Part shown: positions 1 to 12,907 of the stretch, piece after piece | How the letters are laid out: each line of letters begins with the position of its first letter | How positions within the stretch are numbered: position 1 is the first letter of the stretch | From: Candidatus Vogelbacteria bacterium | GTDB taxonomy: Bacteria > Patescibacteriota > Minisyncoccia > Phycocordibacterales > XYD1-FULL-46-19 | Direction: 5' to 3' | DNA length: 64,000 nucleotides | NCBI GenBank assembly: GCA_903864935.1 | Contig: CAIPHT010000005.1 | Location: 9,867-73,866, forward strand | Program-made: the position numbers and the translations under genes | The notes under the pieces: generated by a model | Told to the model about the DNA's origin: nothing | Database searches by the model: none | Seen by the model: only the letters and a program-made list of their open reading frames with translations

Positions 1-758
1 ACAGATGATCCTGAGATATCTATCGAGGGATAGCATCGGTGCCCTGGAGGAAAGAAATGCTCTTCTTTAGCAGGTGCCGCTAGACCAACCAGATAGCCGT
101 ATTCCTTGAGAAATCCCTTTCCTTTCCTTGCCCTGGAACATACTTCCGCATGGAAGCTGTGCAAAAGCTCGTCGGATTTCCTTATCGCCGAAGCAAAAGA
201 GAGAACGTCTTGCCGGTTGGCATGACGACTAGACTTCTCGATTACTCCTCTGTCTCTTGCTATCTCCACAAGGCTGAGCGCAGAGAGGTCGTCGATCAGG
301 CATGTTCGGAAGCGAATAATCTGGAATCTCCGCCTGGTCGGCCTCACTTTCTTCATCAGGCTCTCTCTGGCATTGTTTTTGGAGCCAATCGTGGAAAAGA
401 AAATCCACAAAGTCAGCAACCAGATGTAAGCCTTTGACCCCTTTGGCGGGCAATCGAGATCAATCACACTTGATACCGCAGCCTCGTCGGCCATTTTTTC
501 TGCCCAAGTCCGGCGGTCTTTCTTGGGCGGGGCGACAGTCTTTTCTTGGACTTTCTTCATTGTCATATTCCTTTCTTTGCTTACCCCAAGAGGGGAGCGG
601 TTTTCAATGTTTCTGGTCGAATTATGTAACGGCAAATCAAATATGTAAAGTAGCTTCGTCAGAATTGACGAAAAGATGTTAAAGGTGGTAAAATATGTGT
701 GTAAAACAAGGTTAGATTTATCAATAAATGACTAAAGTTATTTCGTCACTTTTATAAA

Positions 759-1502
759 ATGAGCTTCGATCGATTATTAAAACAACTCGGTTTCTCACAA
801 AATGAGACAAAGGTTTATCTGGCTGGCCTAGAGTGTGGGCTGAGTTCAGCTCAAAATATTGCCGAGAAGGCGGGCCTTGAACGCACCACAACCTACTCGG
901 TCCTTGGGCAATTGGTTAAGAGGGGAGTTGTGGCTAAGACTAAAGATAAGGGGAAGAGCCGTTTCTTAGCGGAATCACCCAGTAAATTGATGTCTTTACT
1001 TAATGAGCTTAAAGAGAATTTGAGTAAGACCTTGCCTGAGTTAGAGGCTATTTATAATAAGAGCCAAATTAAACCCAAAATTATTTTCTATGAAGGGGAT
1101 CGGGCGATTCAGAAAGTTTATGACGATACTTTAGCGGAGAAGCCTGAAGAGATTTTGGAATGGAACACTAATGCCTTCTTTGACAATGCTAAAGTAGATC
1201 GAGACTACATTAAGAAGCGGGTGGGCCTTGGCATCTATGCCAGGCGTCTGGCTGGTGAGGGCTCAATCTGGGCCAAGAAGAATAAACTAAAAGACGAACA
1301 GGAGCTGGCCGAGACACTAATTGTGCCTAAAAACATTTTCTGGCCGGGGATTGAAGTTAATATTTACAACAATAAAGTGGCTTTTCTTAACTATGAAGAA
1401 AATATGTCGGTAATTATTGAGAGTAAGGCAATTGCCGATGCGATGAAACAAGTTTATCGCTTGTCCTGGCTTGGGGCGCGAACCGTAGAGGCTAAAAAAT
1501 AA
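759..1502 (+). CDS. TrmB-family HTH transcriptional regulator (paralog 1 of 3)
   Basis: N-terminal wHTH resembling the TrmB family (LGFSQNETKVYLAGLE...AQNIAEKAGLERTTTYSVLGQLVKRGVV). Length ~250 aa is typical. Two paralogs with the same architecture lie at 10972 and 21461. Confidence 0.72.
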   Translation: MSFDRLLKQLGFSQNETKVYLAGLECGLSSAQNIAEKAGLERTTTYSVLGQLVKRGVVAKTKDKGKSRFLAESPSKLMSLLNELKENLSKTLPELEAIYNKSQIKPKIIFYEGDRAIQKVYDDTLAEKPEEILEWNTNAFFDNAKVDRDYIKKRVGLGIYARRLAGEGSIWAKKNKLKDEQELAETLIVPKNIFWPGIEVNIYNNKVAFLNYEENMSVIIESKAIADAMKQVYRLSWLGARTVEAKK

Positions 1503-1602
1503 GGGCCGAATTAAGTCTTGGCGAAGCAGGGGATTATGTGCTAAGATATTCTTGCTGAAACAGGTTGAAAAACGCTTTTTCAGATTCAAGTTCAATTTCT
1601 AA

Positions 1603-1674
1603 CGGGGTGTAGTGCAACGGCTAGCACGAGTCCTTTGGGAGGATTTAATCCGAGTTCGAATCTCGGCACCCCGA
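1603..1674 (+). tRNA. tRNA-Pro(TGG)
   Basis: Cloverleaf read by eye: acceptor CGGGGTG/CACCCCG, D-arm GTGC..GCAC, anticodon stem AGTCC/GGATT with loop TTTGGGA (anticodon TGG), T-arm CCGAG-TTCGAAT-CTCGG, discriminator A. Confidence 0.85.
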
Positions 1675-1683
1675 CACAAAAGA

Positions 1684-1712
1684 AAAAACAGGATTTATTT
1701 CCTGTTTTTTCT
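1684..1712 (+). terminator. Rho-independent terminator hairpin (AACAGG-atttattt-CCTGTT + T-tract) after tRNA-Pro
   Basis: Stem-loop followed by TTTTTT directly after the tRNA. It sits at the centre of a ~30-nt-arm inverted repeat formed by the tRNA 3' half and its downstream antisense copy. Confidence 0.6.
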
Positions 1713-1767
1713 TTTGTGTCGCGAGATTCGAACTGAAGAGGGGGTCGGGGAGAGGGTAGGGTTTCTC

Positions 1768-1796
1768 TTGACTTCTAAACCAATATTTGCTATAAT
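1768..1796 (+). promoter_or_regulatory. sigma70-type promoter TTGACT-N17-(tgc)TATAAT upstream of the DEAD-box helicase leader
   Basis: TTGACT at 1768-1773, 17-nt spacer ending in TGC (extended -10), TATAAT at 1791-1796. About 180 nt of leader with a stem-loop (1851-1884) precedes the ATG at 1978. Confidence 0.55.
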
Positions 1797-1977
1797 TTAA
1801 GTATCGATTAACTGTTCTAAGAAGTCTGACTTAACACTCATATATTCTCAAGGGCTGTTTCGAAAAATGCGTTACAGCCCTTTTCTGTATTCGCGAACCC
1901 TGCTAAGCCTAAAGCTAGACAGGATTGTGATTATTCGTAATGTATCCCAAAAAAACGGGGTATTTAGATAAATAATA

Positions 1978-3252
1978 ATGTATAACTTTAATAACAATAA
2001 GCGTTTTGGTGCTAAGAAACCCCTCTCAAGCAGGGGAGCTCCTTCGCGTCTCGGCTCTCGCGTGATGGGCCGTTCTTCGAGTGCCTCACGACCTTCTCGT
2101 TTCTCTAGTTCCTCGCGCCCTACTTTTAAGAAAAAGATGCGTGGTGAGTATATTGATATCGCCCGCTTCGTTAAGAAAGCGGTGGTTGGTGTTGTCTCCG
2201 AACCGGTAGTCATCGAGCACGTTTTTGCCGACTTCGGCTTCACTCCTCAATTGCAGAAGAATCTTGAAACAAGAAATTATCTTAATCCGACCCCGATTCA
2301 GGATCAGTCTATTAAGCATACTATGGCCGGCAAGGATATGATTGGTCTCGCTAATACTGGTACCGGTAAGACCGCGGCCTTTCTTCTCCCGATGATTAAC
2401 AAATGTTTCCTTGATAAGCAACAGGGTGTCTTGATTGTGGCTCCAACTCGTGAGCTCGCCATCCAGATTGACGATGAATTTAAGAAATTTACCGGTGGTT
2501 TAGGCCTCTTCTCAGCAGTATGCGTTGGTGGTGCACCTATCTATAGACAAATTGCTGACCTTCGTCGTAATCCAAACTTCGTTATTGGTACCCCAGGGCG
2601 CCTTAAGGATCTTAAGGATAGGGGAGTGATCCACTTTGCTGATTATCAAAATATCGTCTTGGATGAGATCGACCGCATGCTCGACATGGGCTTCGTGGAG
2701 GAAATTCGTCGTATCTTGGCGGAGATGCCTAAAGAGCGACAATCCCTCTTCTTCTCCGCTACCCTGCCTCCTAAGATTAGAGAATTATCCCAAGCCTTCT
2801 TGACCGACCCCGTGGTTGTCAAAGTGACAACGGGCGAGACTTCGGAGAATGTTGATCAAGATATTGTTAAGCATAATAAAGAAAATAAATTTGAGAAATT
2901 GCGTGACTTGCTCGGGACTAAGGCTCTTGGCAAAGTCCTTATCTTCTCCGAGACCAAGAGGGAGGTGGATCGCTTGGCGGTGAGCCTCTCTAAAGAAGGC
3001 TTTAAGGCTGACTCTATCCATGGTGATAAGCATCAGAGCCAGCGTGAGAAAGCTCTTCGTCGCTTCAAAGAAGATCATGTGAATATCCTTGTGGCGACTG
3101 ATGTTGCCGCTCGTGGCCTAGATATCAAGAACATCACTCACGTGATCAACTATTCCTTACCTCAAACTTATACTGATTATGTCCACCGCATTGGCCGTAC
3201 TGGTCGTGGTGACACTAAGGGCTGTGCCTTGACCTTTGTTGAGGTGAATTAA
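1978..3252 (+). CDS. DEAD-box ATP-dependent RNA helicase
   Basis: Q-motif (TPIQ), motif I AxTGTGKT, motif II DEID, SAT, and HRIGRTGR motif VI. Arg/Ser-rich N-terminal tail. Confidence 0.9.
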   Translation: MYNFNNNKRFGAKKPLSSRGAPSRLGSRVMGRSSSASRPSRFSSSSRPTFKKKMRGEYIDIARFVKKAVVGVVSEPVVIEHVFADFGFTPQLQKNLETRNYLNPTPIQDQSIKHTMAGKDMIGLANTGTGKTAAFLLPMINKCFLDKQQGVLIVAPTRELAIQIDDEFKKFTGGLGLFSAVCVGGAPIYRQIADLRRNPNFVIGTPGRLKDLKDRGVIHFADYQNIVLDEIDRMLDMGFVEEIRRILAEMPKERQSLFFSATLPPKIRELSQAFLTDPVVVKVTTGETSENVDQDIVKHNKENKFEKLRDLLGTKALGKVLIFSETKREVDRLAVSLSKEGFKADSIHGDKHQSQREKALRRFKEDHVNILVATDVAARGLDIKNITHVINYSLPQTYTDYVHRIGRTGRGDTKGCALTFVEVN

Positions 3253-3273
3253 AAAAAAGATTATACTCTTGGT

Positions 3274-3978
3274 GTGCCTCAGGAAGGTAAGCCATTTTTA
3301 AGCGATAATATTCATCTTGCTAATTTTGCCGAGGGTAAGGGCGATTTTGTTACCGTTAAGGAATTAAAGAATAAAATTGCTGATCCAAGTTTGGGTGGTG
3401 AAGGGAAGTTTGTTTTAAAAGAATATAATAAGGATCCTGTTAGCGACCTTTTTGCCCAGAAAAATCTTACGTTAGAAAAAATGGCCTCTTTATTAAAAAG
3501 ACGGCAAGAATTTACCCGGGCTTACTATAAGGAACTTCCTGAGTTGGTCGTGGAAAGCCAGTTTTTGATTGCTGAAGGAGAAAATGGTCAACCGACAATC
3601 TATGAATTTCAGGAGAAATTAAATAATTTCCACGAAACTAGTTCCGAGGGGATTGATAATATTGTAAAAAGTTTGGATCACGAGCAAAAAGAGGTTTTGA
3701 TAAAAGAGCTTAGGTATTTTGTAGAGAGGACAAACGATTTTATTGAACAAAAGAATTTGCCTGAAGGTTTTGAAGAATACGAATCTTTTTTTCCTGATCT
3801 CGGTGAACAAAATTTAGTTGTCACCGCTGATGGTCATTTAAGGGTTATTGATACTAACATGTACCATAATCTTTGGGAACAGGACGGTACTTTTGAATCA
3901 AGCGAGCAACTTCTTTTTGGTTTGCGCATGATGACAAGGGAATTGGTTTTATCTATCAAAAAATCCCAAAAAGACTAG
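3274..3978 (+). CDS. hypothetical protein (GTG start), co-directional with the helicase
   Basis: Long ORF 20 nt after the helicase stop. No motif recognised; a ...TADGHLRVIDTN... segment is vaguely kinase-like. Confidence 0.45.
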   Translation: MPQEGKPFLSDNIHLANFAEGKGDFVTVKELKNKIADPSLGGEGKFVLKEYNKDPVSDLFAQKNLTLEKMASLLKRRQEFTRAYYKELPELVVESQFLIAEGENGQPTIYEFQEKLNNFHETSSEGIDNIVKSLDHEQKEVLIKELRYFVERTNDFIEQKNLPEGFEEYESFFPDLGEQNLVVTADGHLRVIDTNMYHNLWEQDGTFESSEQLLFGLRMMTRELVLSIKKSQKD

Positions 3979-4008
3979 ACGTTTTTGTCCCCGGTCTTTT
4001 TTTATGTC

Positions 4009-4036
4009 TTGACATTGTGCGTACATTGTATATACT
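4009..4036 (+). promoter_or_regulatory. promoter TTGACA-N16-TATACT for the dinJ-yafQ module, overlapping a GTACA..TATAC palindrome (likely operator)
   Basis: Consensus -35 and -10 hexamers 10 nt upstream of the antitoxin ATG. Confidence 0.5.
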
Positions 4037-4045
4037 TAAGACATT

Positions 4046-4294
4046 ATGACGACTCTAAATATAAGGATTGAGGAGAAAGCTAAAGCTGATGCCAATAAGA
4101 CCCTGGCTCGTCTTGGCCTTGATATGTCGAGTGCCGTGAAGCTTTTTCTCTATCAAGTGGTAAAGGAGGATGGCTTACCTTTCTTGCCGACCAACAATCT
4201 CTCTACTATCAAAGCGCGTTTTGATGCCCAGGTGTCTGAGGCAAAGAAAAGCCGTGGGTTTAAAACTGCTAAACAAGCTCTTAAGGGACTATAG
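4046..4294 (+). CDS. dinJ: type II antitoxin, DinJ/RelB family
   Basis: MTTLNIRIEEKAKADANKTLARLGLDMSSAVKLFLYQVV is a ribbon-helix-helix antitoxin signature. It is immediately followed by a YafQ-like ORF. Confidence 0.75.
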   Translation: MTTLNIRIEEKAKADANKTLARLGLDMSSAVKLFLYQVVKEDGLPFLPTNNLSTIKARFDAQVSEAKKSRGFKTAKQALKGL

Positions 4295-4300
4295 TTAATT

Positions 4301-4588
4301 ATGACTTTTCTCATTAAACGAACTAAGGATTTTGAGAAGTCTTTCAAAAAAATTAGCCGTTCTGGTTTGAATTTAAAAACAAGAGAGAAATTAGAATTTA
4401 TTATTGATGCTATTGCTTGCGAGAGAAGATTAGACATAAAGTAAAAGAATCATAGATTAAAAGGGGAATTAAAAGATTACTACGAATGTCATGTTGTCCC
4501 AGATCTTTTGCTTATTTACAAAATAGAAGAGGAAGTAAATTTCTTGATTTTGGTGGATATAGGAAGCCATAATCAATTGTTTGGGTAG
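4301..4588 (+). pseudogene. yafQ: YafQ/RelE-family toxin gene interrupted by an in-frame TAA (4442-4444)
   Basis: N part MTFLIKRTKDFEKSFKKISRSGLNLKTREKLEFIIDAIACERRLDIK, then a stop, then in the same frame KNHRLKGELKDYYECHVVPDLLLIYKIEEEVNFLILVDIGSHNQLFG. Together these match the YafQ consensus (...GxxKGxRECHIxPDxLLIYK...). The catalytic C-terminal half lies after the stop. Confidence 0.65.
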
Positions 4589-4635
4589 CCTTTTGTCCCA
4601 GGTCTTTTTTTGTGTTAAGTTGTATTTGTTAATTT

Positions 4636-4825
4636 CGGAGTGTAGTGTAACGGTAACATCCACGACGCGCCCCCACACCTTTTTAACGGGGCATAGTGTA
4701 ACGGTAACATCCACGATTCGGGTTCGTGGGACTCTGGGTTCGAGTCCCAGTGCCCCGACAGGAACGTAAAAAAGGTGTGGGGGTGAAGGTTCGTGGGACT
4801 CAGGGTTCGAATCCCTGCACTCCGA
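4636..4825 (+). tRNA. tRNA-Pro-like gene whose anticodon loop holds a 125-nt insertion (4666-4790) containing a complete tRNA-Pro(CGG)
   Basis: 5' part CGGAGTG-TA-GTGTAACGGTAACATC-CCACGA (4636-4665) and 3' part TCGTGG-GACT-CAGGGTTCGAATCCCTG-CACTCCG-A (4791-4825). Acceptor is perfectly complementary and the D-arm is identical to the nested tRNA. The insert has 10-bp perfect inverted repeats CCCCCACACC (4670-4679) and GGTGTGGGGG (4774-4783). Uncertain whether functional, spliced or a pseudo-tRNA. Confidence 0.5.
4687..4758 (+). tRNA. tRNA-Pro(CGG), nested inside the outer tRNA-Pro-like gene
   Basis: Acceptor CGGGGCA/TGCCCCG, anticodon stem CCACGA/TCGTGG, loop TTCGGGT (anticodon CGG), T-arm CTGGG-TTCGAGT-CCCAG, discriminator A. 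Confidence 0.8.
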
Positions 4826-4840
4826 CAAAGCGAAGCATTT

Positions 4841-5016
4841 GGCGGAGTGAGCGAGCCAACTGCTTGGCTTGCGTCTGGGATTCGAACAGCGGAGTGATAT
4901 TTTTTCAGCAGAAAAAATTAGCGAGCTGGTGCCTAGACAAAGTTTTGCGACGGCAAAACTTTAGTCGAAGGAGAATCCCTGCACCGTAGTAGTGATATTT
5001 CCTGCACTCCGACAAA
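4841..5016 (+). repeat. tRNA-flank mimic element copy B (~175 nt), immediately 3' of the outer tRNA-Pro-like gene
   Basis: Homologous to the minus-strand segment 9201-9354. It starts with a GGCGGAGTG acceptor-like 5' end and contains three hairpins: GCGAGCCAA-ctgc-TTGGCTTGC; TTTTTTC-agca-GAAAAAA; AAAGTTTTG-cgacggc-CAAAACTTT. It ends with GAATCCCTGCAC...TCCGACAAA, a direct repeat of the tRNA 3' end plus 4 nt of flank. Confidence 0.5.
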
Positions 5017-5091
5017 TTTCTTTACTTTTTCTCTCTTGTCGTTGATAATTGGGTGGGTTTTTGGGTCTCTATCAACAACAGGAGTTTTCTT

Positions 5092-5541
5092 ATGAATAAC
5101 ACGTCCGTTGCTATTGCGAGCGTTCAGCTTCAACGCTGGGCAACCATCCGTCTCAACCATTGCCGGTTGGAGACGGAATGGAGAGCGAGGTTTCGTTTTT
5201 CTCCCACAAGGAGAAACCTCTCTGCCCTTCCTTCGCTTACCCTTGGGGAGTATGTTATCGGTCTTGATCTCGAGGGAGGGAATTTTGACATCAGTTCAAG
5301 ACTCCCTCTTGAAGATTTTTCTCACGGGGTGGCAATCTATCTCTCGTCTCCTGATTGGGGAGAGGGCGAGGTGGATTCTGGGGCTGGGGTCTCGGGACGT
5401 TTCTTCCAAAGGTTCTATTCTTCTGAGGAAGAGAACCAGGGGCTCTCGGTCGGGGTGTTCCTTGATTTTCCTTCCCGACGAATTTGCCACTTTTTCTTCC
5501 GAGGAGAAAATGGGGGGATGGTGAGAAAAACTTTCAAGTAG
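5092..5541 (+). CDS. hypothetical protein (149 aa), or alternatively part of a structured non-coding region
   Basis: ATG with AGGAG 7 nt upstream, and a terminator right after the stop. However, three overlapping ORFs of similar length occur in different frames and strands here, and the region is rich in hairpins. Confidence 0.3.
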   Translation: MNNTSVAIASVQLQRWATIRLNHCRLETEWRARFRFSPTRRNLSALPSLTLGEYVIGLDLEGGNFDISSRLPLEDFSHGVAIYLSSPDWGEGEVDSGAGVSGRFFQRFYSSEEENQGLSVGVFLDFPSRRICHFFFRGENGGMVRKTFK

Positions 5542-5555
5542 GGTTAAGCCCCGTC

Positions 5556-5595
5556 GGCACATTGCGTGCTGGCGGGGCTTTCTTTTTCTAAACTG
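5556..5595. terminator. bidirectional intrinsic terminator (AAGCCCCGTCGGCAC...GTGCTGGCGGGGCTT + T-tract)
   Basis: Long GC stem flanked by A/T tracts on both sides, lying between convergent genes. Confidence 0.6.
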
Positions 5596-5599
5596 TTTT

Positions 5600-5926
5600 T
5601 TACTCTCTTAGAACGAGAGTCTCTTGATATTCCAAGAAGTGTTTCCAACACTCCTCAGCCGATGGTTCGTATCCGAGCTTTAGTCCGGCGTAGTAGCGGT
5701 TGAGTTCCTCTTGGCCTTGTTCGTAGGCGACCCTGAACATGGCGGCGTAACCCATGCTGATGTACCAGAAGACAACTTCGTTGTTCGTCAGTTTTCTGTC
5801 TCCCATCTCTTCGGCGAGTTTGCGATAGCGCATGGCGTCAACGTATTGGGTAATGTCCCGCTCTACCCTTTTCATTCGCTCTTCTTCGGTGAGCTCAGGA
5901 ACACCTTCGACATTTGGGTCTATCAT
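5600..5926 (-). CDS. hypothetical protein (108 aa), GC-richer than its neighbours
   Basis: RBS AAGGAG 7 nt upstream of the ATG at 5926, clean ORF, terminator downstream. No recognisable domain. Confidence 0.5.
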   Translation of the reverse strand: MIDPNVEGVPELTEEERMKRVERDITQYVDAMRYRKLAEEMGDRKLTNNEVVFWYISMGYAAMFRVAYEQGQEELNRYYAGLKLGYEPSAEECWKHFLEYQETLVLRE

Positions 5927-6066
5927 TTCGGCACTCCTTTCTTGGTTATGACTGATGAGACCAAAAATCTGCCCTTAGTCTAACACCAACCTTTAATTTA
6001 ACAAGCATCAAAAAACTCACCATCAATTGGCGAGTTTTTTGATTTACGAAAATTAATATCTTCTAA

Positions 6067-6321
6067 TTATTTCTTGCCCCACTTCTTCTTGTAAGCATAG
6101 AAGTAGTAGAGGATGTCCAAGATGCCCAAGGTGTTAACCAAGAGAAGCACCACGAACCAAACCTTAGCGCCACTACGAGCAGCGCGCCACATGGCCAAAC
6201 CTTTCCAAAGAAGGTTCCAGGCAATGAGGACAATTAATAAAGTGGTTAGACCAGCGGTGCTGGCGATAACCGTACCCCATGTTGATGGAGGTAACGTACC
6301 CAATTTATAAATGCTTTCCAT
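6067..6321 (-). CDS. small membrane protein with a PLDc_N-like motif (cardiolipin synthase N-terminal-like)
   Basis: Two TM helices and the motif KVWFVVLLLVNTLGILDILYYFYAYKKK, matching the PLD-nuclease N-terminal small-protein family (W..vllL....G...Y...). Confidence 0.55.
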   Translation of the reverse strand: MESIYKLGTLPPSTWGTVIASTAGLTTLLIVLIAWNLLWKGLAMWRAARSGAKVWFVVLLLVNTLGILDILYYFYAYKKKWGKK

Positions 6322-6386
6322 GTTTTGAATTATACCATATGGTTCAGAAATTTGACGAGACTTTTATCCACATCTATCATTAACTC

Positions 6387-7259
6387 ATGTTAACGCAAAT
6401 CCAAAAAGAATTAAGAAAAGTGGCCGACAAAGACAAGGCAAAAATTTTGGCGCGGTTTTTCAAAACTGGGAAAGGCGAGTATGGTGAGGGTGATAAATTC
6501 TTAGGGGTGGTGGTGCCGGAGCAAAGACGGATTGCAAAAGAATATTTGCGAGACGAGAACGTTGTGAGAAGTCGTTTTTCAAGTGAGCCCGAAATGCGAC
6601 TTCGCACAATGTTCGCTGACCTTCAAAATCTTTTGCGAAGCGAGTATCACGAAGACAGGTTAACCGCCCTTTTGGTTTTAGTGGAGCTGTATCGACTTAC
6701 TCAAAAAAATGACCCTACTTCGCCGAGGCTTCGCAGGGTTAATTCGCGCAAGATTTTTTTGTTTTACATAAAAAATCTTGCGCGAACTTGCCCCGTGAGA
6801 GCGAAGCGATTTTACGGGGTTAACAATTGGGACTTAGTAGATTTAAGTGCCCCTAATATTGTCGGCGATTATCTGTTTACCCTGAGTGAAGTCGAAGGGT
6901 TGAATAATTTTTCTAAAATTCAAATAAAAACATTTTTGCTTAAATTAGCTAAGTCAAAAAATCTTTGGTCGCGTCGGGTGGCGGTGCTTGCCACCTTCCC
7001 CTTTATCAAAAATAAAAAGTTCGAAGAAATTTTAGAGTTGACCAAGTTCTTACTTTTCGAACAAAAAGAAAATCATGACCTAATGCACAAGGCTCTTGGT
7101 TGGGCGCTCCGCGAAGTGGGGAAGAGGGAGTTGGGAGTTTTGAGGAACTTCCTTGATCACTATGCGGGAGTCTTGCCTCGGACCACTCTTCGTTACTCAA
7201 TTGAGAGATTGCCTCAAAAGGAGAGGCTCGAGTATCTAGCTAGGCCCAAAATCGCTTGA
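6387..7259 (+). CDS. DNA alkylation repair protein (AlkD-like HEAT-repeat glycosylase family) carrying in-frame palindromic inserts
   Basis: N-terminus MLTQIQKELRKVADKDKAKILARFFKTGKGEYGEGDKFLGVVVPEQRRIAKEY and later ...NNWDLVD..., ...LWSRRVAVLA... are typical of the DNA_alkylation repair family. Extra segments VRSRFSSEPEMRLRT and DPTSPRLRRVNSRK.../...ARTCPVRAKRFYGV coincide with DNA palindromes. Confidence 0.7.
   Translation: MLTQIQKELRKVADKDKAKILARFFKTGKGEYGEGDKFLGVVVPEQRRIAKEYLRDENVVRSRFSSEPEMRLRTMFADLQNLLRSEYHEDRLTALLVLVELYRLTQKNDPTSPRLRRVNSRKIFLFYIKNLARTCPVRAKRFYGVNNWDLVDLSAPNIVGDYLFTLSEVEGLNNFSKIQIKTFLLKLAKSKNLWSRRVAVLATFPFIKNKKFEEILELTKFLLFEQKENHDLMHKALGWALREVGKRELGVLRNFLDHYAGVLPRTTLRYSIERLPQKERLEYLARPKIA
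6564..6607. repeat. 44-nt palindromic element GTGAGAAGTCGTTTTTCAAGTGAGCCCGAAATGCGACTTCGCAC inserted in-frame in the AlkD-like CDS
   Basis: Nucleotide-identical to 45454-45497 inside comEC. Imperfect hairpin (11-bp outer stem plus inner TTTC/GAAA). Encodes VRSRFSSEPEMRLRT in both hosts. Confidence 0.8.
6716..6820. repeat. composite nested palindrome inside the AlkD-like CDS (17-bp perfect stem TTCGCGCAAGATTTTTT/AAAAAATCTTGCGCGAA plus outer CTTCGC..GCGAAG arms)
   Basis: Read directly from the sequence. It stays in-frame (...NDPTSPRLRRVNSRKIFLFYIKNLARTCPVRAKRFYGV...). Confidence 0.6.
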
Positions 7260-7338
7260 GATATAAGGGTTACACGGTTATGGTCGTTCTGCGTCACAAC
7301 TTCTTGGCGAAGATTATTAAAAGAGTATAATTATCTAT

Positions 7339-8241
7339 ATGAAAAAATTAATTAATCTTAAGAAACTTCTTCGACAATCTCGAGCGGTTTATCGAGCGAA
7401 GTTTCCTGTTCTCTTTGGGCTCCTTGTTTTGCCCTTCACCCTCTTTATTATTAGTCCGCTCTTGGTTCAAAGTTTTGATTTTCTTTATCTGCCACTCTCG
7501 CTCTTGCTCACAATCCTGGGCCTCTTCTTGTTGCTCTGGGGTGGGACAGCGGCCATTATTGTTATTCGCGACCGTGATGAGAATCTCTCAATCAGAGAAG
7601 CACTTGAGCGAAGTAAGGGAAAAATTTGGCCCCTTCTCTGGGTCTCAATTATTGTTGGCTTCATTGTTGTCGGGGCTTCAATTTTATTTTTAATCCCTGG
7701 TTTAATTTTGGCCGTCTATTTTATCTTTGCCAAAATTATTGTCGTGGCTGAAGATGAGACTGGTCTCGTCGCTTTGGCCAAGAGCCGTGAATATGTTCGA
7801 GATTATTTCTGGCCAGTTCTTGGACGTTACTTGGTGATTGTTATTCTTACTACAATTGTTGTTGCTATTTTTGCTGGCATTATCTCAGCCCTCAGCCAAG
7901 CCCTTATCTCTGTCTGGGGGCGAGCGGTGAGCGAGGCATTAGTGATTATCTTGCAAGCCTTAGTAAATGCAATTATTTTTCCTTTTGTTTTGTCGGCAAC
8001 TTATTTGCTTTATGAGAATGTGAGAGAAGTTAAGGGTGAGGTGTCTGTTGAAGAAAAAAATAATCAAGCGTGGATTTATCTTGGCGTGGGTTTGGCCGGT
8101 TGGATTTTCTTAGCGGTCTTAATTGTTTTGGCGATTGTCATTCTCACGACCGCTATTGGTGGTTATGTTCTTGGTGCCTTTGCTTCGAATATTTTTAATA
8201 GCCAAGCGTTAATTAAAGCGACGAGTACTCTCGCACAATAA
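7339..8241 (+). CDS. polytopic membrane protein, hypothetical
   Basis: About 6 hydrophobic helices; no catalytic motif recognised. Confidence 0.5.
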   Translation: MKKLINLKKLLRQSRAVYRAKFPVLFGLLVLPFTLFIISPLLVQSFDFLYLPLSLLLTILGLFLLLWGGTAAIIVIRDRDENLSIREALERSKGKIWPLLWVSIIVGFIVVGASILFLIPGLILAVYFIFAKIIVVAEDETGLVALAKSREYVRDYFWPVLGRYLVIVILTTIVVAIFAGIISALSQALISVWGRAVSEALVIILQALVNAIIFPFVLSATYLLYENVREVKGEVSVEEKNNQAWIYLGVGLAGWIFLAVLIVLAIVILTTAIGGYVLGAFASNIFNSQALIKATSTLAQ

Positions 8242-8245
8242 AATT

Positions 8246-8464
8246 ATGTCTTACGGCTTCCTCATTATTTTTCTCGCCTGGCTCTGGCAATGGTATAAGT
8301 TTGGTCAAGGTCATCGCTCGATGGATCCATGGTTTCTTCGCCTCTTTGCGCTTGGGATGTTGGTCTTAGTTCTCGACACTTTCAGAATTTCTAATTGGCT
8401 CACTTGGGCCAATGTCGCCACTCTTGTCATCACTATTTTCTTCATCTGGAAATTCAGACGATAA
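8246..8464 (+). CDS. small 2-TM membrane protein, hypothetical
   Basis: 72 aa ORF 4 nt after the previous stop, with two hydrophobic segments. Confidence 0.35.
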   Translation: MSYGFLIIFLAWLWQWYKFGQGHRSMDPWFLRLFALGMLVLVLDTFRISNWLTWANVATLVITIFFIWKFRR

Positions 8465-8483
8465 AATCCTACCAATCTTTATC

Positions 8484-9104
8484 ATGAAGACTTTCGCTTT
8501 TATTGACGCTTCTAATCTTTTTTATGGTGGTGAAAAAAGTTTAGGTTGGAAGATCGATTATCAAAAATTACTCGCTTATATTAAAGAAAAATACGAAGCG
8601 GAAAAGGTCTTTTATTTTGGAGGAGTGGAAATTCACGATTTTCTCTATGACTATCAAAAAGAAGAAACCGTCAATTTATCGGAGTTAGAGAAACATTTGT
8701 TGTTGATAATCAAAAATGAAGAGAATAATTTTAACGAAGCTCGGTTAATTCTTTTTGGTCACCATCTTCAGCGTGTTCGTTTTTACAAAAAGCTAGAATC
8801 TTTTGGTTACAAAATGTTTCTCAAGCCGGTTAAACTTTTTGAGCAGGAAGATGAATCAACTAAAAGAAAAGCTGATTGCGATGTTGATATGACAGTAAAA
8901 ATTATCAGAGAAAAAGATAATTTTGACCGAGCTCTTATTTTGTCTGGTGATGGAGATTTTTTGCCTACCCTAAAATATCTGAGAGAATTAGAAAAAGAAG
9001 TTGTTATCTTGGCACGTGGGCCTAGGACAGCACGAGAAATTCGCCAATTTGCTGGCAGTAATTTTAGAGACTTCGAGTATCTTCGAGAGCTATTAAAAAG
9101 GTAA
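8484..9104 (+). CDS. NYN-domain (LabA/PIN-like) protein
   Basis: MKTFAFIDASNLFYG ... ILSGDGDFLPTLKYLRE is a NYN/LabA-like nuclease-fold signature. The ATG at 8484 is preferred over the longer upstream extension. Confidence 0.65.
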   Translation: MKTFAFIDASNLFYGGEKSLGWKIDYQKLLAYIKEKYEAEKVFYFGGVEIHDFLYDYQKEETVNLSELEKHLLLIIKNEENNFNEARLILFGHHLQRVRFYKKLESFGYKMFLKPVKLFEQEDESTKRKADCDVDMTVKIIREKDNFDRALILSGDGDFLPTLKYLRELEKEVVILARGPRTAREIRQFAGSNFRDFEYLRELLKR

Positions 9105-9200
9105 TAGAAACACAAACGGCACCCATTTAGGATGCCGTTCAAGTTTAGTACCTTAAGTTTACTTGATTGACGAAAATTGTCAATCGTTGTTTGCAATTTT

Positions 9201-9354
9201 TGCGAGGGATGGGAGAAAACCGTCGCCCGCGACTCAAGTCTCGCCGTCGCTCAACTTGGTCTGGGCACCAGCTCGCTAGTTTTTGTTGGTACAAAAACAT
9301 CGCTCCGCTGTTCGACTCTCCACGCAAGCCAAGCAGTTGGCTTGCTCATCCCGC
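9201..9354 (-). repeat. tRNA-flank mimic element copy A, immediately 3' of tRNA-Gly(TCC)
   Basis: Read on the minus strand: GCGGGAT (the tRNA-Gly acceptor 5' strand), then hairpin GCAAGCCAA-ctgc-TTGGCTTGC, then GTGGAGAGTCGAAC (antisense to the tRNA-Gly T-arm), then AGCGGAGCGAT, then hairpin GTTTTTGT-acca-ACAAAAAC, then TAGCGAGCTGGTGCCCAGAC, then a hairpin with loop CGACGGC, ending CTCCCATCCCTCGCA (a near-copy of the tRNA-Gly 3' end). Core is homologous to 4841-4975. Confidence 0.5.
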
Positions 9355-9356
9355 AA

Positions 9357-9380
9357 AAGAGCCTCCTTGTGGAGGCTCTT
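9357..9380. terminator. bidirectional terminator hairpin AGAGCCTCC-ttgt-GGAGGCTCT flanked by A/T tracts, between tRNA-Gly and element A
   Basis: Perfect 9-bp stem with T-runs on both strands. Confidence 0.55.
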
Positions 9381-9386
9381 TTTCTG

Positions 9387-9457
9387 TGCGGGATGGGAGA
9401 GTCGAACTCCCGACCTCAGTTTGGAAAACTGATATTTTACCGCTAAACTAATCCCGC
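9387..9457 (-). tRNA. tRNA-Gly(TCC)
   Basis: Minus strand: GCGGGAT-TA-GTTTAGCGGTAAAAT-A-TCAGT-TTTCCAA-ACTGA-GGTC-GGGAG-TTCGACT-CTCCC-ATCCCGC-A; anticodon TCC. Confidence 0.8.
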
Positions 9458-9544
9458 CTTCGCTGAAGCTTCGGCGGGCAGGCCCGCTCAGCTAGCTTTG
9501 ACTTCAATACTTTAGCAGGAAAATTGAGTATTTTCAATATAAAA

Positions 9545-9585
9545 AATACGCCGAGGACATTTCTGTCCTCGGCGCTTAATCGTTC
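9545..9585 (-). terminator. intrinsic terminator (GCCGAGGACA-tttct-GTCCTCGGCG + T-tract on the minus strand) after the REC gene
   Basis: Strong stem with an A-tract on plus and T-tract on minus, directly 3' of the 9597 stop. Confidence 0.6.
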
Positions 9586-9596
9586 TCGGCGTGTGG

Positions 9597-10133
9597 CTAA
9601 CGGTGACGGAAACGTTGCTCGTATTTGCTCAGGTCATGGGAGCAAGAGAAACTCTTTCCTGTGTCTGGGTCCTGCCAGAAGTCTTCTGCAAATGCAAGTC
9701 CCCAGTCCTTGCCTGGCTTAGACCCCTCTTCTCTGTTCCAGCGAGGAAGAGCTTGTTTGAAAAAGACTCTCTTCCCACCAACAAGGAATCTCCCCATGCT
9801 GACAATCATCTCGCAAATCGGGTCGGAATGTTGTGTCGAAGTGAAGAGACCCACTCCTTTAACGCAAGGCTTGCTCAGGGCCTCCAACATCACGAGCAGG
9901 CCACTGGGCACAAGCTTCGGCGGGCCGGTAGTGACAGACTTGTTGATGAAGGTTTTGTCCGGGGGCATGTAGAGGTCGGTCATCACCCAGTCGAAGTCTT
10001 GTTTGTCCAGCAGGTCCACCGCTTCTTTGTAGCCCGTCGCGGAGACAATGTCGTAGGCTTCGGGGGAGATTGTCTCCCTGGTAGACTCGATATTCTCTGG
10101 GCTGTCGTCAACAATCAGAATGCGCTCTCTCAT
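9597..10133 (-). CDS. response-regulator receiver (REC)-like domain protein with an uncharacterised C-terminal domain
   Basis: MRERILIVDDSPEN...YDIVSATGYKEAVDLL...FDWVMTDLYMP shows a CheY-like beta1-alpha1-beta2-alpha2-beta3 pattern with the DD pair and a phospho-acceptor Asp. The ATG at 10133 is chosen because it abuts the upstream gene's stop. The C-terminal ~100 aa are unknown. No histidine kinase nearby. Confidence 0.45.
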   Translation of the reverse strand: MRERILIVDDSPENIESTRETISPEAYDIVSATGYKEAVDLLDKQDFDWVMTDLYMPPDKTFINKSVTTGPPKLVPSGLLVMLEALSKPCVKGVGLFTSTQHSDPICEMIVSMGRFLVGGKRVFFKQALPRWNREEGSKPGKDWGLAFAEDFWQDPDTGKSFSCSHDLSKYEQRFRHR

Positions 10134-10134
10134 C

Positions 10135-10770
10135 TTAGGTCTCCTTTTCAAAGTTCTGGTTTTTGTTATCTTCTTCTGAGACGATGAAGGCGAATCCGTT
10201 CGCTCGACTAATCTTCCTTTTTTCGCTCTCAAAAAAGATCGTGTCTAGACTGGGCCGGATCAGGCGGCTGCCGAATCTTCCTTCAATCAGCTTGCCGGGG
10301 AAAAGGGTGAGAATATACTGACCATTTTCGCTACTGAAGTTGGGCAGAGGGTCATGCATAACGACAACGCAATTTGCCCTCATGTAAGACAAGTCTTCGT
10401 CGGAGAGACTTTTGCGGAGAAGGCAGGCAACTTCTGGTGTGGCCTCTCTCCAACCTCGCTCCTTCGCTTCTTGGCGGATATTTTCCACTGTGCACCATTC
10501 AGCCTTGTCGATGTTCCAGCCATCAAGAATGGCGATTTCGTACTTCTTTCCTCTCGTTGGTTTGAAGTCCTCTGATTCGATAATTCTCTCGGCGCAGCCC
10601 TGGATTATGGGGGACTTGTCATCTTCCGAATAAAAGTTACGGAAGGATTCTTCGCACCATTCTTTTCCGGTTTTCCCGTCAGACGTTACGGAGAGGTAGT
10701 AAACCCCATCTTTCCAGGTAAAATGTTCATGGGTCGAGGTCCTTCCTGCCCACGGCTGAGAAATAATCAT
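10135..10770 (-). CDS. hypothetical protein (211 aa), GC-richer, co-transcribed with the REC-like gene
   Basis: Clean ORF with a 1-nt gap to the downstream gene. No recognisable motif. Confidence 0.5.
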   Translation of the reverse strand: MIISQPWAGRTSTHEHFTWKDGVYYLSVTSDGKTGKEWCEESFRNFYSEDDKSPIIQGCAERIIESEDFKPTRGKKYEIAILDGWNIDKAEWCTVENIRQEAKERGWREATPEVACLLRKSLSDEDLSYMRANCVVVMHDPLPNFSSENGQYILTLFPGKLIEGRFGSRLIRPSLDTIFFESEKRKISRANGFAFIVSEEDNKNQNFEKET

Positions 10771-10971
10771 GGTTCATCTCCTTTTCAAGGTTCTTGTTTT
10801 TTGCCTAAATCAACCATTGATTCAGGTATTCACTCTTGCCAATGTTCTGATTATATTTTACAACGAAGACTACATTCTGTCATATTTGTCAACAATTCTT
10901 TATTTTTGACTTATTTTACCTTTATTTATATAATTAAAATGTTGACAATATTTTAGACAAAAACTAAAAAT

Positions 10972-11712
10972 ATGGAAAATAAACTCCTAAATACCCTTAC
11001 AAACATTGGATTATCTGATAAAGAAGCTCGGGTCTATATGGCGACAATGGCTCTAGGGCCTAGTAAAGTCCAAGCTATCGCTAAGGCTGCCGAGGTAAAA
11101 AGGACGACCGTTTATGTTATTTTGGAGGCGCTTAAGTCTAAGGGGTTAATAAGGGTGGAGCTTTCGGGTTGGAAGACTCTGTATGTGGCTGAGAGCCCAG
11201 ACAAATTGGAGTCTCTGGTAGAGCAAATGCGCCATCAGGTTAAGAAGACTCTGCCAGAATTTTCTGCCTTATATAATCTCCACTCCAGCGGCGCTTTTAT
11301 CAGTTATTACGAAGGACTTGAGGCGGTGAAGAACGTCTATGAGGGACTGCTTCGCGATATCAAGCCCCATGAGGACTATCTAGTTATTGGTGATTTGAAT
11401 CAGTGGCTAGAACAAGATAGGGACTTTTTTCTCGATTTTACCAAGCGTAGGGCTAAATTGGATATAAATATCAGAATCTTAATGCAAGAATCGCCTCTAG
11501 CTCATGAGCACAAAAGGTTGGAGAGAAATTTTAATGAAATTGTTAAGATTATGCCTCCAGAGTATAAACTGACAACTAATATGGTCATTATTCCGCATCG
11601 AGTCGTAATAAATCAGCTAACCCCACCCCTCCTTGCAATGGTCATAGAAAATGACAACATTGTCAAAATGAATAGGGAGTTATTCGAAATGATCTGGAAG
11701 TCAATTCCTTAA
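10972..11712 (+). CDS. TrmB-family HTH transcriptional regulator (paralog 2)
   Basis: LGLSDKEARVYMATMALGPSKVQAIAKAAEVKRTTVYVILEALKSKGLI, with the same architecture as 759-1502. Confidence 0.72.
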   Translation: MENKLLNTLTNIGLSDKEARVYMATMALGPSKVQAIAKAAEVKRTTVYVILEALKSKGLIRVELSGWKTLYVAESPDKLESLVEQMRHQVKKTLPEFSALYNLHSSGAFISYYEGLEAVKNVYEGLLRDIKPHEDYLVIGDLNQWLEQDRDFFLDFTKRRAKLDINIRILMQESPLAHEHKRLERNFNEIVKIMPPEYKLTTNMVIIPHRVVINQLTPPLLAMVIENDNIVKMNRELFEMIWKSIP

Positions 11713-11764
11713 ATTGATTATTTACTAAATTTGCCCTTCTCTTCATTTTTGGTATTATTCAAAA

Positions 11765-12907
11765 ATGGTAAATAAAAAAACTCTCCGAACTTGGGTTGAG
11801 ATAGACAAGAAAGCCCTCGTTCATAATTATAAAATGTGGCGGCGTTTTATCGGCCCCAAGAAAAAACTCCTCTCGGTGATTAAGTCTAATGCCTATGGCC
11901 ATGGCCTTGTTGATTGTGCTAAGATTTTTTCTAAACTCGGGGCAGACTGGTTGGGGGTGGATGCGATCGAAGAGGCACTAGTTTTGAGGCGGGCCGGTAT
12001 TAAGAAACCGATCTTGGTCTTGGGCCATACTCGTCCGGCTAACTTCAAGCTCGCTGTTGAAGACAATATTGTTATTACTATTTCTTCCCCCGAATCTCTT
12101 AAAGAGATTGTGTCACTTGATAAGAAGTTGACTGGTAGCCAAGAGCTCCGCTTCCATCTCAAAATTAATACCGGCATGAACAGACAGGGCTTTGCTGTTT
12201 CTGATTTGCCCAAAGTCCTAAAAATTGTTTCTAGTTTAAAAAAAGTTAAGTTGATAGGAGTTTATAGCCACTTGGCTAGCCCTTGTAGTAAAGAAAACGA
12301 AACGAGAACTAAGTCTCAGGTAAAACTCTTCAAACAAGCGGTGCAAATTCTCGAAGAAGCCAGTTTTAATAACTTGATTCGACATCTCTGTGCCACGGGA
12401 GCCACCACCTTCTATCTTGATGATTCCTTAGACATGGTGCGAATTGGCATTGGCTCTTATGGCCTCTGGCCTGACGAGGCGGCTAAGAAGTATCTGGCCA
12501 AGACGGCCAAATGGTTCTCACTTAAGCCAGCTCTTACTTGGAAGGCGGTGGTGAGCGAGATTCATGGAGCGAAGAAGGGCGAGGCCGTTGGTTATGATTT
12601 CACCCATGTTTTCAAAAAAGATTCTAAATTGGCTATTTGCGCCGTCGGTTATTGGCATGGCTATAATCGCATACTCTCCAATCGGGGTTACGTAATGATC
12701 AAAGGAAAGAAGGCCCCTCTCGTCGGGCGAGTCTCGATGGATATGATTATTGTTGATGTGACTAATATCCCTCAGGCCAAAGTTGGTGATGAAGTTATCA
12801 TTATGGGGCCCGGCATTAGTGCTTATGATTTTGCCAAACTCTCTGACACTTCTCCCTATGAAGTAATCACCCGTATTAATCCAGATATTCCTAGGTTATA
12901 TAAATAA
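11765..12907 (+). CDS. alr: alanine racemase
   Basis: PLP-lysine motif VIKSNAYGHG near the N-terminus, length 380 aa, C-terminal beta-domain pattern. Confidence 0.88.
   Translation: MVNKKTLRTWVEIDKKALVHNYKMWRRFIGPKKKLLSVIKSNAYGHGLVDCAKIFSKLGADWLGVDAIEEALVLRRAGIKKPILVLGHTRPANFKLAVEDNIVITISSPESLKEIVSLDKKLTGSQELRFHLKINTGMNRQGFAVSDLPKVLKIVSSLKKVKLIGVYSHLASPCSKENETRTKSQVKLFKQAVQILEEASFNNLIRHLCATGATTFYLDDSLDMVRIGIGSYGLWPDEAAKKYLAKTAKWFSLKPALTWKAVVSEIHGAKKGEAVGYDFTHVFKKDSKLAICAVGYWHGYNRILSNRGYVMIKGKKAPLVGRVSMDMIIVDVTNIPQAKVGDEVIIMGPGISAYDFAKLSDTSPYEVITRINPDIPRLYK

Follow-up and report, generated by a model that had tools for sequence, protein, structure and literature searches.

A family of structured elements downstream of tRNA genes in Patescibacteria, with antisense arms that follow the neighbouring tRNA

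What is the structured sequence of about 175 nucleotides (nt) that lies immediately 3' of a tRNA-Pro gene in a Candidatus Vogelbacteria genome, and why do its ends resemble that tRNA? The stretch analysed here, referred to as the window, comprises 64,000 nt of contig CAIPHT010000005.1 (positions 9,867 to 73,866, forward strand), and an earlier note made from its letters alone had described the sequence (copy B), together with a second copy on the opposite strand next to tRNA-Gly (copy A), as a two-member family that might be either a mobile element or a processed non-coding RNA. Here we show that A and B are members of a large, previously uncatalogued family of structured elements of ~150-190 nt found 3' of tRNA or transfer-messenger RNA (tmRNA) genes, on the same strand, and we describe its anatomy, the way in which its arms follow the adjacent tRNA, the covariation of its core and its conservation between species. 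What the element does is a separate matter, and for this we weigh a tentative reading as a cis-acting switch on the pre-tRNA against several others.

Two copies in the window and a family across Patescibacteria

Both copies lie where the earlier note had placed them, B at ~4838-5016 on the plus strand and A at 9359-9201 on the minus strand, as delimited by inspection of the sequence. Two conserved blocks, AGCCAACTGCTTGGCTTGCG and AGCGAGCTGGTGCCYAGAC, occur exactly twice each in the window, at 4854-4873 and 4920-4938 (+) in B and at 9342-9323 and 9277-9259 (-) in A, against a chance expectation of ~0.02. Pairwise alignment of A and B gives a column identity of 82% and reproduces the hairpin differences noted before. 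At B, the direct repeat CCTGCACTCCGACAAA is found at 4814-4829 and again at 5001-5016 (16/16 identical). Folded as single sequences, A and B both have their 5' and 3' ends paired with each other (z-scores of -5.9 and -4.4, respectively). Because the B locus is recovered at 100% identity in independent metagenome assemblies, an assembly artefact is excluded for it; exact-protein look-ups for strain variants returned just 100%-identical contigs or no match. Three tRNAs are called in the window by ARAGORN and Rfam, namely tRNA-Pro(UGG) at 1603-1675, tRNA-Pro(CGG) at 4687-4759, and tRNA-Gly(UCC) at 9386-9457 (-). The parts of the two copies, in the order in which they follow their tRNA, are listed below; numbers such as 53 or 65/66 given for tRNAs in this text are tRNA positions, and X'a and X'b are the two antisense arms.

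Copy B:
4805-4825 (+), proximal copy "X" of the tRNA 3' end within the outer tRNA-Pro, running from G53 (4805) through the T loop, the T-stem 3' strand and the acceptor 3' strand to A73 (4825), and followed by the trailer CAAA
4830-4837 (+), loop joining the tRNA end to the antisense arm, with a GCGAAGC mini-hairpin motif
4838-4849 (+), antisense arm X'a (TTTGGCGGAGTG), the reverse complement of the acceptor 3' strand and trailer, with one mismatch, at the discriminator
4851-4872 (+), hairpin hp1, a 9-bp stem with the loop CTGC, placed precisely where the acceptor and T-stem parts of the antisense copy meet
4875-4887 (+), antisense arm X'b (CTGGGATTCGAAC), the reverse complement of tRNA positions 53-65
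4887-4974 (+), conserved core (covariance model R1, covariation)
4887-4928 (+), core domain P2, made of CAGC/GCUG, a GGA/GA internal loop, GC/GC and hairpin 2, with the GU linker next
4931-4972 (+), core domain P3, made of GCCY/RGG, GAC/GUC and hairpin 3, with GA at its end
4975-5016 (+), distal sense copy of the tRNA 3' end, consisting of ATCCCTGCAC, a 17-nt insertion with a repeated CTGCAC, and TCCGACAAA (direct repeat D10)

Copy A:
9386-9457 (-), tRNA-Gly(UCC), the partner of this copy (ARAGORN, Rfam)
9355-9385 (-), trailer and terminator-like hairpin (AAAAAGAGCCTCC ACAA GGAGGCTCTTTT), leading from tRNA-Gly to the element
9354-9348 (-), antisense arm X'a, GCGGGAT
9345-9324 (-), hairpin hp1
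9322-9310 (-), antisense arm X'b (TGGAGAGTCGAAC), complementary to tRNA-Gly at 12/13 positions
9310-9223 (-), conserved core, with P2 at 9310-9269 and P3 at 9266-9225
9222-9201 (-), distal sense copy (CGGTTTTCTCCCATCCCTCGCA), the T-stem 3' strand plus the acceptor 3' strand with one T inserted (direct repeat D6)

The distal copy of B has an insertion of 17 nt and a 6-nt duplication (4985-5007), and its X'b complements the T arm of the outer tRNA at 12/13 positions, as read by eye.

The family is not restricted to these two members, as had been supposed. An exact-pattern scan of genomes, using one genome per species, returned 90 stretches, all of them in metagenome-assembled genomes of Patescibacteria type except for one chance match in a Streptomyces coding region. 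The 8-kb loci around the matches were examined further, and loci or contigs of related genomes are given L-numbers below. A covariance model (R1) built from 87 cores, which is the kind of search of related candidate phyla radiation (CPR) genomes that the earlier note had called for, finds 105 copies in 89 loci; in the window it scores B (4875-4974, +) at 103.4 bits and A (9322-9223, -) at 101.7 bits, with no other significant match. The hosts are mostly Paceibacteria/Parcubacteria, and the taxa represented include Paceibacteria, Nomura-, Taylor- and Kaiserbacteria as well as genomes labelled Saccharibacteria. A tRNA or tmRNA gene lies directly upstream on the same strand in 70/94 pattern matches, and no match shows any other arrangement, so that the expected position 3' of a tRNA is upheld for most copies; the remaining matches lie at locus edges, follow tRNAs missed by ARAGORN (e.g. 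those with group I introns), or have no detectable upstream tRNA. About 30 tRNA species serve as hosts, and tmRNA does so twice (L004 and L026). Both A and B have the core match, a same-strand tRNA gene upstream and an X'b that is the reverse complement of positions 53-65, the three features by which we define the family.

In line with the earlier statement that the element matches nothing known, the core is unmatched in Rfam 15 (at E<=1 for window positions 1-12000 and at E<=10 for the two elements by themselves), with just weak matches to the flanking tRNAs and to terminator look-alikes, and a scan of 20 loci at gathering thresholds found tRNAs, group I introns, LOOT RNA and a SAM riboswitch, all off the element. 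A full-text literature search likewise found the element undescribed, the nearest subject being group I introns in Patescibacteria tRNAs, where they are frequent (PMC13011429); this is a different feature. The family is judged to be new and to fall outside every RNA family and mobile-element class tested. Among known RNAs, a tRNA was set aside since the elements are called neither by ARAGORN nor by RF00005. A tmRNA, including permuted or two-piece forms, came into consideration because TCTGGGATTCGAAC resembles a tmRNA 5' region, and was rejected because there is no T-arm hairpin, no ARAGORN call of this kind in the window and, by inspection, no core frame conserved between A and B, the weak model matches being confined to the 3' end of the outer tRNA. 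A group I intron was rejected because matches to Intron_gpI in L020, L032 and L090 lie elsewhere in the locus and never on the element. Hammerhead, hairpin and twister ribozymes and the kink-turn (K-turn) were discarded by inspection only, as the junctions (UCGAAC, GU, GA) and the GGA/GA loop do not fit their consensus cores.

Some of the RNAs met in these scans may be recorded in their own right. The group I introns lie at 5900-6181 (-) in L032, 1227-1503 (+) in L090 and 3320-3579 (-) in L020, and in L032 and L090 the gene upstream of the element is an intron-containing tRNA overlooked by ARAGORN. LOOT RNA (RF03000, 74-82 bits) is present at 1320-1444 (-) in L055, 167-281 (+) in L023 and 6959-7075 (+) in L030, in no case adjoining an element.

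Antisense arms, covarying core and conservation

Following the tRNA, the parts of the element come in the order trailer, inner hairpin, X'a, hp1, X'b, core, an optional small hairpin and the distal sense copy. The inner hairpin is either GC-rich and terminator-like, preceded by an A-tract and followed by a T-tract, or a mini-hairpin of the type GCGAAGC/GCGTAGC; the GCGAAGC motif of B recurs at the same position in other copies. The arm X'a is the reverse complement of the acceptor 3' strand (positions 66-73), the discriminator and the trailer. The hairpin hp1 (~9 bp, loop usually CUGC) splits the antisense arms at the 65/66 junction in most copies, which is where the acceptor and T stems stack and the 5' strand of the tRNA leaves the coaxial stack, and compensatory changes are found in 8/9 of its pairs. 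The core of ~100 nt has two domains, P2 (CAGC/GCUG, a GGA/GA internal loop, GC/GC and a variable hairpin) and, after a GU linker, P3 (GCCY/RGG, GAC/GUC and a variable hairpin often with tandem G-A pairs), and terminates in GA. The distal sense copy of the tRNA 3' end begins at about position 57-61, and its T-stem part closes the core as a three-way junction. In eight loci (L004, L031, L041, L042, L048, L055, L090 and L030), the optional mini-hairpin, which separates the core end GGGMGA from the distal T-stem strand, has the conserved sequence GATAARTGTACYCAYGG; the insertion in B is a different one.

The hairpin covariation proposed from two copies holds and is strengthened with 87 sequences. 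Pairing in the core is kept in 88% of cells, compared with 69% in column shuffles and ~40% with slid partners, and changes on both sides of a pair that preserve pairing are seen in 22/31 pairs, with 560 double-change cells compared with 147 in shuffles. Within P2 and P3, G-U outnumbers A-C by 38 to 13 (tally of the pair table), which favours the tRNA strand over the opposite strand, so that an RNA from the opposite strand is less likely. Kissing of the hp1 loop (CUGC) with the hairpin-2 loop (GCAG) was also considered and dropped, as on inspection these loops do not covary across copies.

The relation of the arms to the neighbouring tRNA can be measured over the whole family. The longest substring shared by an element and its own tRNA 3' end has a median of 12 nt on the sense, 3' side and of 11 nt on the antisense, 5' side, compared with ~5.7 nt for non-cognate tRNAs, and by this measure the cognate tRNA ranks first in most copies. 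That the termini follow the adjacent tRNA, first seen in A and B, is thus confirmed over ~60 independent copies. None of the outcomes that the earlier note had named as refuting it was observed. The segment reported as antisense to the T arm is indeed antisense, with its extent corrected to the reverse complement of positions 53-65, which X'b matches at a mean of 11.8/13. The dinucleotide opposite T-loop positions 59-60 is tracked in 56/63 copies (permutation mean 14.6, maximum 25), and for tRNAs with A57, UUGAA replaces UCGAA in 6/7. The 5' end of the element, on the other hand, had been taken for a copy of the 5' acceptor strand of the tRNA, and here the G-U positions decide otherwise: X'a complements the 3' strand at these positions, for example in tRNA-Glu, whose 5' strand is GGCCCTA whereas the element reads GTGACCCTA. 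The complement in X'a runs into the discriminator and trailer for a mean of 6.1 nt and for at least 5 nt in 31/42 copies.

The distal copy is a less constant partner than the tRNA itself. Of the positions at which the two disagree, the arms are complementary to the tRNA version at 77, to that of the distal copy at 10 and to neither at 6, so that the 5' arms are better described as antisense to the tRNA 3' strand and trailer than as ends that imitate the tRNA; among mismatches between arms and tRNA, G-U (30) is more frequent than A-C (16). The T-stem 3' strand of the distal copy is exact within 35 nt of the core in 47/57 copies (control 10%), its acceptor strand is present at >=6/7 in 37/57 (control 14%), and, with the discriminator included, it matches at 8/8 in 32/63. 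X'a and the distal acceptor copy are kept independently, with both present in 24 copies, one only in 17 and 15, and neither in 6. From these retention counts, the arms, the core and the core-closing helix are the well-kept parts, and the acceptor-like outer helix is less so.

Between species, the element is better conserved than its surroundings. The window and L033 are syntenic, with the helicase gene 86% identical and other blocks at 66-76%, whereas the tRNA-Gly, hairpin, arms and core of A are 97.5% identical to L033 over 237 nt. The element part differs at four positions, and two of these changes compensate each other as a pair in hairpin 3; the identity ends at GGGCGAC, and L033 lacks the distal acceptor copy. 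Similarly, the orthologous copies of L017 and L064 are 94% identical with flanks at 70-76%, and those of L029 and L079 are 93% identical with flanks at 83%. This contrast between orthologues and flanks is best read as purifying selection.

The tRNA loci themselves are less stable in position. The Gly module is inverted relative to its flanks between the window and L033. The search for empty sites in relatives suggested by the earlier note also gave a result, in that the intact orthologue of the outer tRNA-Pro(CGG), at 2637-2709 (-) in L033, is on the opposite strand, directly next to the stop codon of the helicase gene, and is without an element, whereas its orthologue in the window carries B. 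At the corresponding place in L033, tRNA-Pro(UGG) is missing. The syntenic blocks cover window positions 1767-3252, 6050-8454, 9222-9458 and 11746-12276, with tRNA modules displaced or flipped, and relative to L033 the window has extra genes beside its tRNA modules, one RelB-like (4046-4294) and one with an NYN domain (8412-9104).

A possible cis-acting switch and its rivals

Because the arms could pair either with the tRNA 3' strand or with the distal copy, the element can be read as a three-segment conformational switch or clamp that would act in cis on its own pre-tRNA. We favour this reading tentatively, at rather less than even confidence. RNA polymerase reading through the hairpin behind the tRNA would produce the element as RNA, and in this RNA the 3' strand of its own tRNA and the core-closing distal sense copy would compete for the antisense arms. 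By matching the trailer, the arms would gain a toehold beside the acceptor stem, from which they could strand-invade and take the tRNA 3' strand into a helix of 20-25 bp; alternatively, the same arms would pair with the distal sense copy and close the conserved core. Such a switch would set whether a read-through transcript gives a folded tRNA, and the conserved core would be the likely binding site for a ligand or protein. When tRNA and element are folded together to minimum free energy (MFE), the arms take the 3' strand of the tRNA as partner in 57/61 cases and its T arm in 56/61, and the arm-captured state is predicted to be ~15 kcal/mol more stable than a folded tRNA with a self-folded element, of which the distal copy offsets ~3 kcal/mol. 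The logic resembles that of attenuators and riboswitch expression platforms, where three segments engage in exclusive pairings (1:2 or 2:3), one of which closes a multi-helix junction, and the element has the corresponding parts, namely a covarying multi-helix junction whose closing helix (exact in 47/57) competes with an alternative pairing (predicted in 57/61). In contrast to those systems, it is placed after a tRNA and not before an mRNA, and the controlled step would be the folding of a tRNA.

Several observations weigh against this reading. A terminator-like hairpin with a T-run precedes the arms in 37/57 copies, so that the element RNA would depend on read-through; a terminator follows the core in 14/57, which is no more than in the opposite-strand control (17/57). 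The distribution is patchy and covers a subset of tRNAs only, with two exact-pattern matches of this first family on a 675-kb contig and an antisense T arm at roughly 10 of ~60 tRNAs other than those that brought the loci in, so that tRNA maturation cannot require the element. The arms could stay matched to the tRNA without any function, through gene conversion or quasi-palindrome correction acting on close inverted repeats, and the covariation and the G-U bias would also fit hairpins of single-stranded DNA. The invariance of 23 core bases is not evidence, because the search pattern imposed them. No neighbour protein recurs around the ~90 copies. Transcription of the element, the pairing in vivo and any effector are steps that we infer.

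A more elaborate form of the same idea, in which these elements would be programmable, tRNA-specific RNAs with a scaffold and a bipartite antisense guide, allowing a ligand or protein to control the choice between folding, processing and destruction of a given tRNA or tmRNA, appears doubtful to us. Its formal relatives are the bipartite guides, such as the H/ACA pocket, the external guide sequences of RNase P, the small guide RNAs of tRNase Z and the IS110 bridge RNA, in which two antisense segments also flank a hairpin and a constant scaffold carries a variable guide; together with their target they form a three-way junction reminiscent of the acceptor/T coaxial stack. By comparison, the arms of the element are much longer (~13 plus 8-12 nt), its target lies in cis and includes the trailer, and no ACA box or K-turn consensus is apparent. 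The RNAs of tRNA 3' external transcribed spacers (3'ETS), of which 3'ETS-leuZ of E. coli is an example, are comparable in being encoded in a tRNA trailer, whereas the element belongs to a large structured family with arms antisense to its own tRNA and is not a sponge for other small RNAs. The primer-binding site of retroviruses and long terminal repeat (LTR) retrotransposons also complements the 3'-terminal ~18-22 nt of a specific tRNA, i.e. the acceptor and T-stem 3' strands and part of the T loop; the complement in the element, in contrast, fits the genomic trailer instead of CCA and is split by a hairpin, and there is no reverse transcriptase nearby. For the same reason, templated addition of CCA from the arm was rejected. 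To our knowledge, no described element combines a constant scaffold with sense and antisense arms copied from the neighbouring tRNA's 3' end. The design predicts a testable mechanism, in which the decoy copy competes with capture of the tRNA 3' strand. If the programmable form of the idea is true, tRNA biogenesis in these bacteria would itself be subject to a guide-RNA- or riboswitch-like layer; and should the element prove to be a functional RNA, the very small genomes of CPR bacteria would gain a conserved family of RNAs present in many copies, which suggests importance to these organisms.

Among the other explanations, the one with most to be said for it, though we hold it to be unlikely, is that of a non-autonomous mobile DNA, MITE-like (miniature inverted-repeat transposable element), REPIN-like or miniature integrative, which would target the 3' ends of tRNA and tmRNA genes and be moved in trans by an enzyme encoded elsewhere; its hairpins would be recognised as single-stranded DNA, and its antisense arms would be target guides, like the guide sequences beside the end hairpins of IS200/IS605. 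Many features of the loci are in agreement with this, including the breadth of hosts, the presence of B and its absence in L033 at orthologous tRNA-Pro(CGG) genes, two tandem units at a distance of 165 nt in L003 and a second, truncated unit in L028, near-identical cores with different arms within one genome (L034/L080, 99%; L051/L058, 94%), a mosaic core in L076, which has hairpin 2 in common with L029 and P3 with L014, and the shifting and reorientation of tRNA modules among otherwise syntenic relatives. A direct repeat of the tRNA 3' end moreover flanks the element, as it does at integrase att sites (median common substring 12, compared with 5.6 for non-cognate tRNAs; 16/16 at B). This is what relates it to islands and prophages integrated at tRNA or tmRNA genes by tyrosine integrases, which share the 3' location and a direct repeat starting in the T loop, whereas the element has just ~150-190 nt, no integrase, an additional hairpin-split antisense copy, a covarying core and signs of purifying selection. 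With the repetitive extragenic palindromes (REP), REPINs and MITEs it shares being small, non-coding, hairpin-rich, multi-copy and intergenic, without an open reading frame (ORF), and REPINs, which are moved in trans by a single-copy RAYT gene, also persist for long; its termini, however, are derived from the tRNA and not conserved in the family, its position is strictly tRNA-linked and co-oriented, and no RAYT-like partner lies next to it in the 8-kb loci. Against mobility, clustering of ORFs within 3.5 kb of ~90 copies gave no family in more than six loci, the clusters inspected being housekeeping-like by sequence or Pfam, and no integrase, transposase, reverse transcriptase or HUH enzyme (TnpA/RAYT) recurs there; Pfam finds unrelated genes among ten neighbours in the window, and the pattern has no match in viral contigs. 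The conservation of orthologues far above that of flanking genes, with a compensatory change, is unlike neutral decay, neither a target-site duplication nor an att crossover gives a hairpin-split antisense copy of the target, and the sharing of cores between loci is explicable by gene conversion among existing copies. On these grounds the integrative or MITE-like origin, as put forward earlier, was not sustained in that form: an integrative element was rejected by gene content, with no integrase or recombinase inside or beside the copies, and a MITE because each copy has its own terminal inverted segments, identical to the 3' end of the tRNA beside it, with a repeated target segment of ~20 nt. 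Rolling-circle and target-primed copying give the order of the parts but not the retargeting, and were likewise not retained. If the element does turn out to be mobile, it would be of a new kind, with ends written by its target, and would bear on the movement of tRNA genes in these genomes.

The earlier note had also raised the possibility of a tRNA-like acceptor and T-arm handle, and in its full form this would make the element an autonomous imitation of a tRNA's top half, in which the 5' arm and the distal copy make an acceptor/T-like coaxial helix, hp1 replaces the D and anticodon arms, and RNase P and RNase Z excise a ~150-nt RNA that is maybe CCA-tailed. The joining of the 5' to the 3' end in the folds of A and B, the position of hp1 exactly at the 65/66 junction, and a distal copy that often includes the discriminator and mostly has an exact T-stem strand all speak for it. 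We nevertheless consider it rather improbable, and the handle is weakened as a whole, as the elements keep or lose the antisense acceptor arm irrespective of the distal acceptor copy, the arms track the tRNA in preference to the distal copy, and in L033 the distal acceptor strand is gone from an element whose core is 97% conserved; in addition, the pairing runs into the trailer, which is unexpected for a tRNA-like substrate, the T-loop complement in the arm has no partner in the distal copy, and there is neither a T-loop hairpin nor a match to a tRNA, tmRNA or other tRNA-like model. A view that dispenses with the RNA, and to which we give still less credence, holds that template switching or fold-back replication made a DNA palindrome centred on the tRNA terminator, which gene conversion keeps, while the core has an unrelated local role (fail-safe terminator, insulator or protein site). 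The proximal copy, inner hairpin and antisense arm do make one long interrupted palindrome centred on a terminator-like hairpin, and GCGAAGC/GCGTAGC loops, which are very stable mini-hairpins in DNA, recur at its centre. Elements with other cores have the same layout (see below), and of 125 tRNAs that are followed by 200 nt of sequence in the loci analysed, 70 show a T arm in antisense (at least 11/13 positions) on the downstream side and none of the 125 shows one upstream. Such a palindrome leaves unexplained why hp1 sits at the same junction in most copies, why the core has a strand-specific G-U covariation, and why ~100 nt of core are 93-97% conserved between species. Finally, the element could be inserted in the T loop in the manner of an intron, or serve as an alternative 3' exon, with the tRNA body pairing with the distal copy and an insertion of ~200 nt being removed or tolerated. 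In some MFE folds (e.g. L009) the distal copy does become the partner of the tRNA 5' acceptor strand, and group I introns occur commonly in the tRNAs of Patescibacteria (PMC13011429), but the Rfam model for these introns has no match on the element, the upstream tRNA is complete without splicing, and the distal acceptor strand is gone or decayed in about one-third of the copies, all of which makes this explanation very improbable.

Related elements and the surrounding loci

The layout described here extends beyond the core recognised by model R1, which itself can be used for annotating these loci. A second family has the core GGGGUCGGGRA (L042, L056 and L063), and a third has the same X'a-hp1-X'b layout with a smaller two-hairpin core, AGRCUUUUC...GAAAAGYACCUGG...CCGAAGA (L007, L022, L061, L084, L088 and L052). 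In L022, a third-family element stands in tandem ahead of a family-1 copy behind a single tRNA. The window itself has a short member of the second family behind tRNA-Pro(UGG), where a perfect 22-bp palindrome spans the last bases of this tRNA, the trailer and a terminator-like hairpin (region 1672-1760), followed by an antisense T arm (CGAGATTCGAAC, its acceptor part having a 6-nt deletion) and then by a different core (GGGGGTCGGGGA). The positions are as follows.

1676-1760 (+), window, other-family element after tRNA-Pro(UGG) (1603-1675) (inverted repeat I4)
~2400-2560, L007, third-family element
~6340-6480, L022, third-family element
~980-1130, L061, third-family element

The element after tRNA-Pro(UGG) stops at a promoter-like sequence, TTGACT-17-TATAAT, of the helicase gene.

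The tRNA gene beside copy B has a history of its own. Described before as tRNA-Pro-like, it is a tRNA-Pro(CGG), but one that is interrupted in its anticodon loop by a second tRNA-Pro(CGG) flanked by inverted repeats, so that an outer and an inner gene are nested.

4636-4665 (+), 5' half of the outer tRNA-Pro(CGG)-derived gene, with the acceptor strand CGGAGTG, the D arm and the 5' strand of the anticodon stem (repeat family D3)
4666-4789 (+), insertion of ~124 nt in the outer anticodon loop, with a fold z-score of -5
4670-4688 and 4765-4783 (+), 19-nt inverted repeats inside that insertion (inverted repeat I6)
4687-4759 (+), inner, complete tRNA-Pro(CGG) between the 19-nt inverted repeats (ARAGORN, Rfam)
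4790-4826 (+), 3' half of the outer tRNA, with the trailer up to 4829 (direct repeat D10)

The inner tRNA differs from the outer one in the acceptor and T stem, and the outer anticodon loop has decayed from TTCGGGT to TGAAGGT. The 19-bp inverted repeat around the inner tRNA has no other occurrence in the window or in related loci, and the insertion is identical in independent assemblies. One independent metagenome contig (L093) starts precisely where the tRNA 3' end gives way to element B, corresponding to window position 4826, which suggests that short-read assemblies are broken by these repeats. Upstream of the nested tRNA, the 25-nt direct repeat TTTTGTCCCNGGTCTTTTTTTNTGT (92% identical; 3983-4007 and 4591-4615, +) brackets the region of a RelB-antitoxin-like gene and may be the mark of an insertion or a duplicated terminator. 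Further along, an inverted repeat with 29-nt arms (6731-6798, +; 83% complementary, 10-nt spacer) lies within the region of a DNA-alkylation-repair gene and is the source of spurious weak matches to microRNA models.

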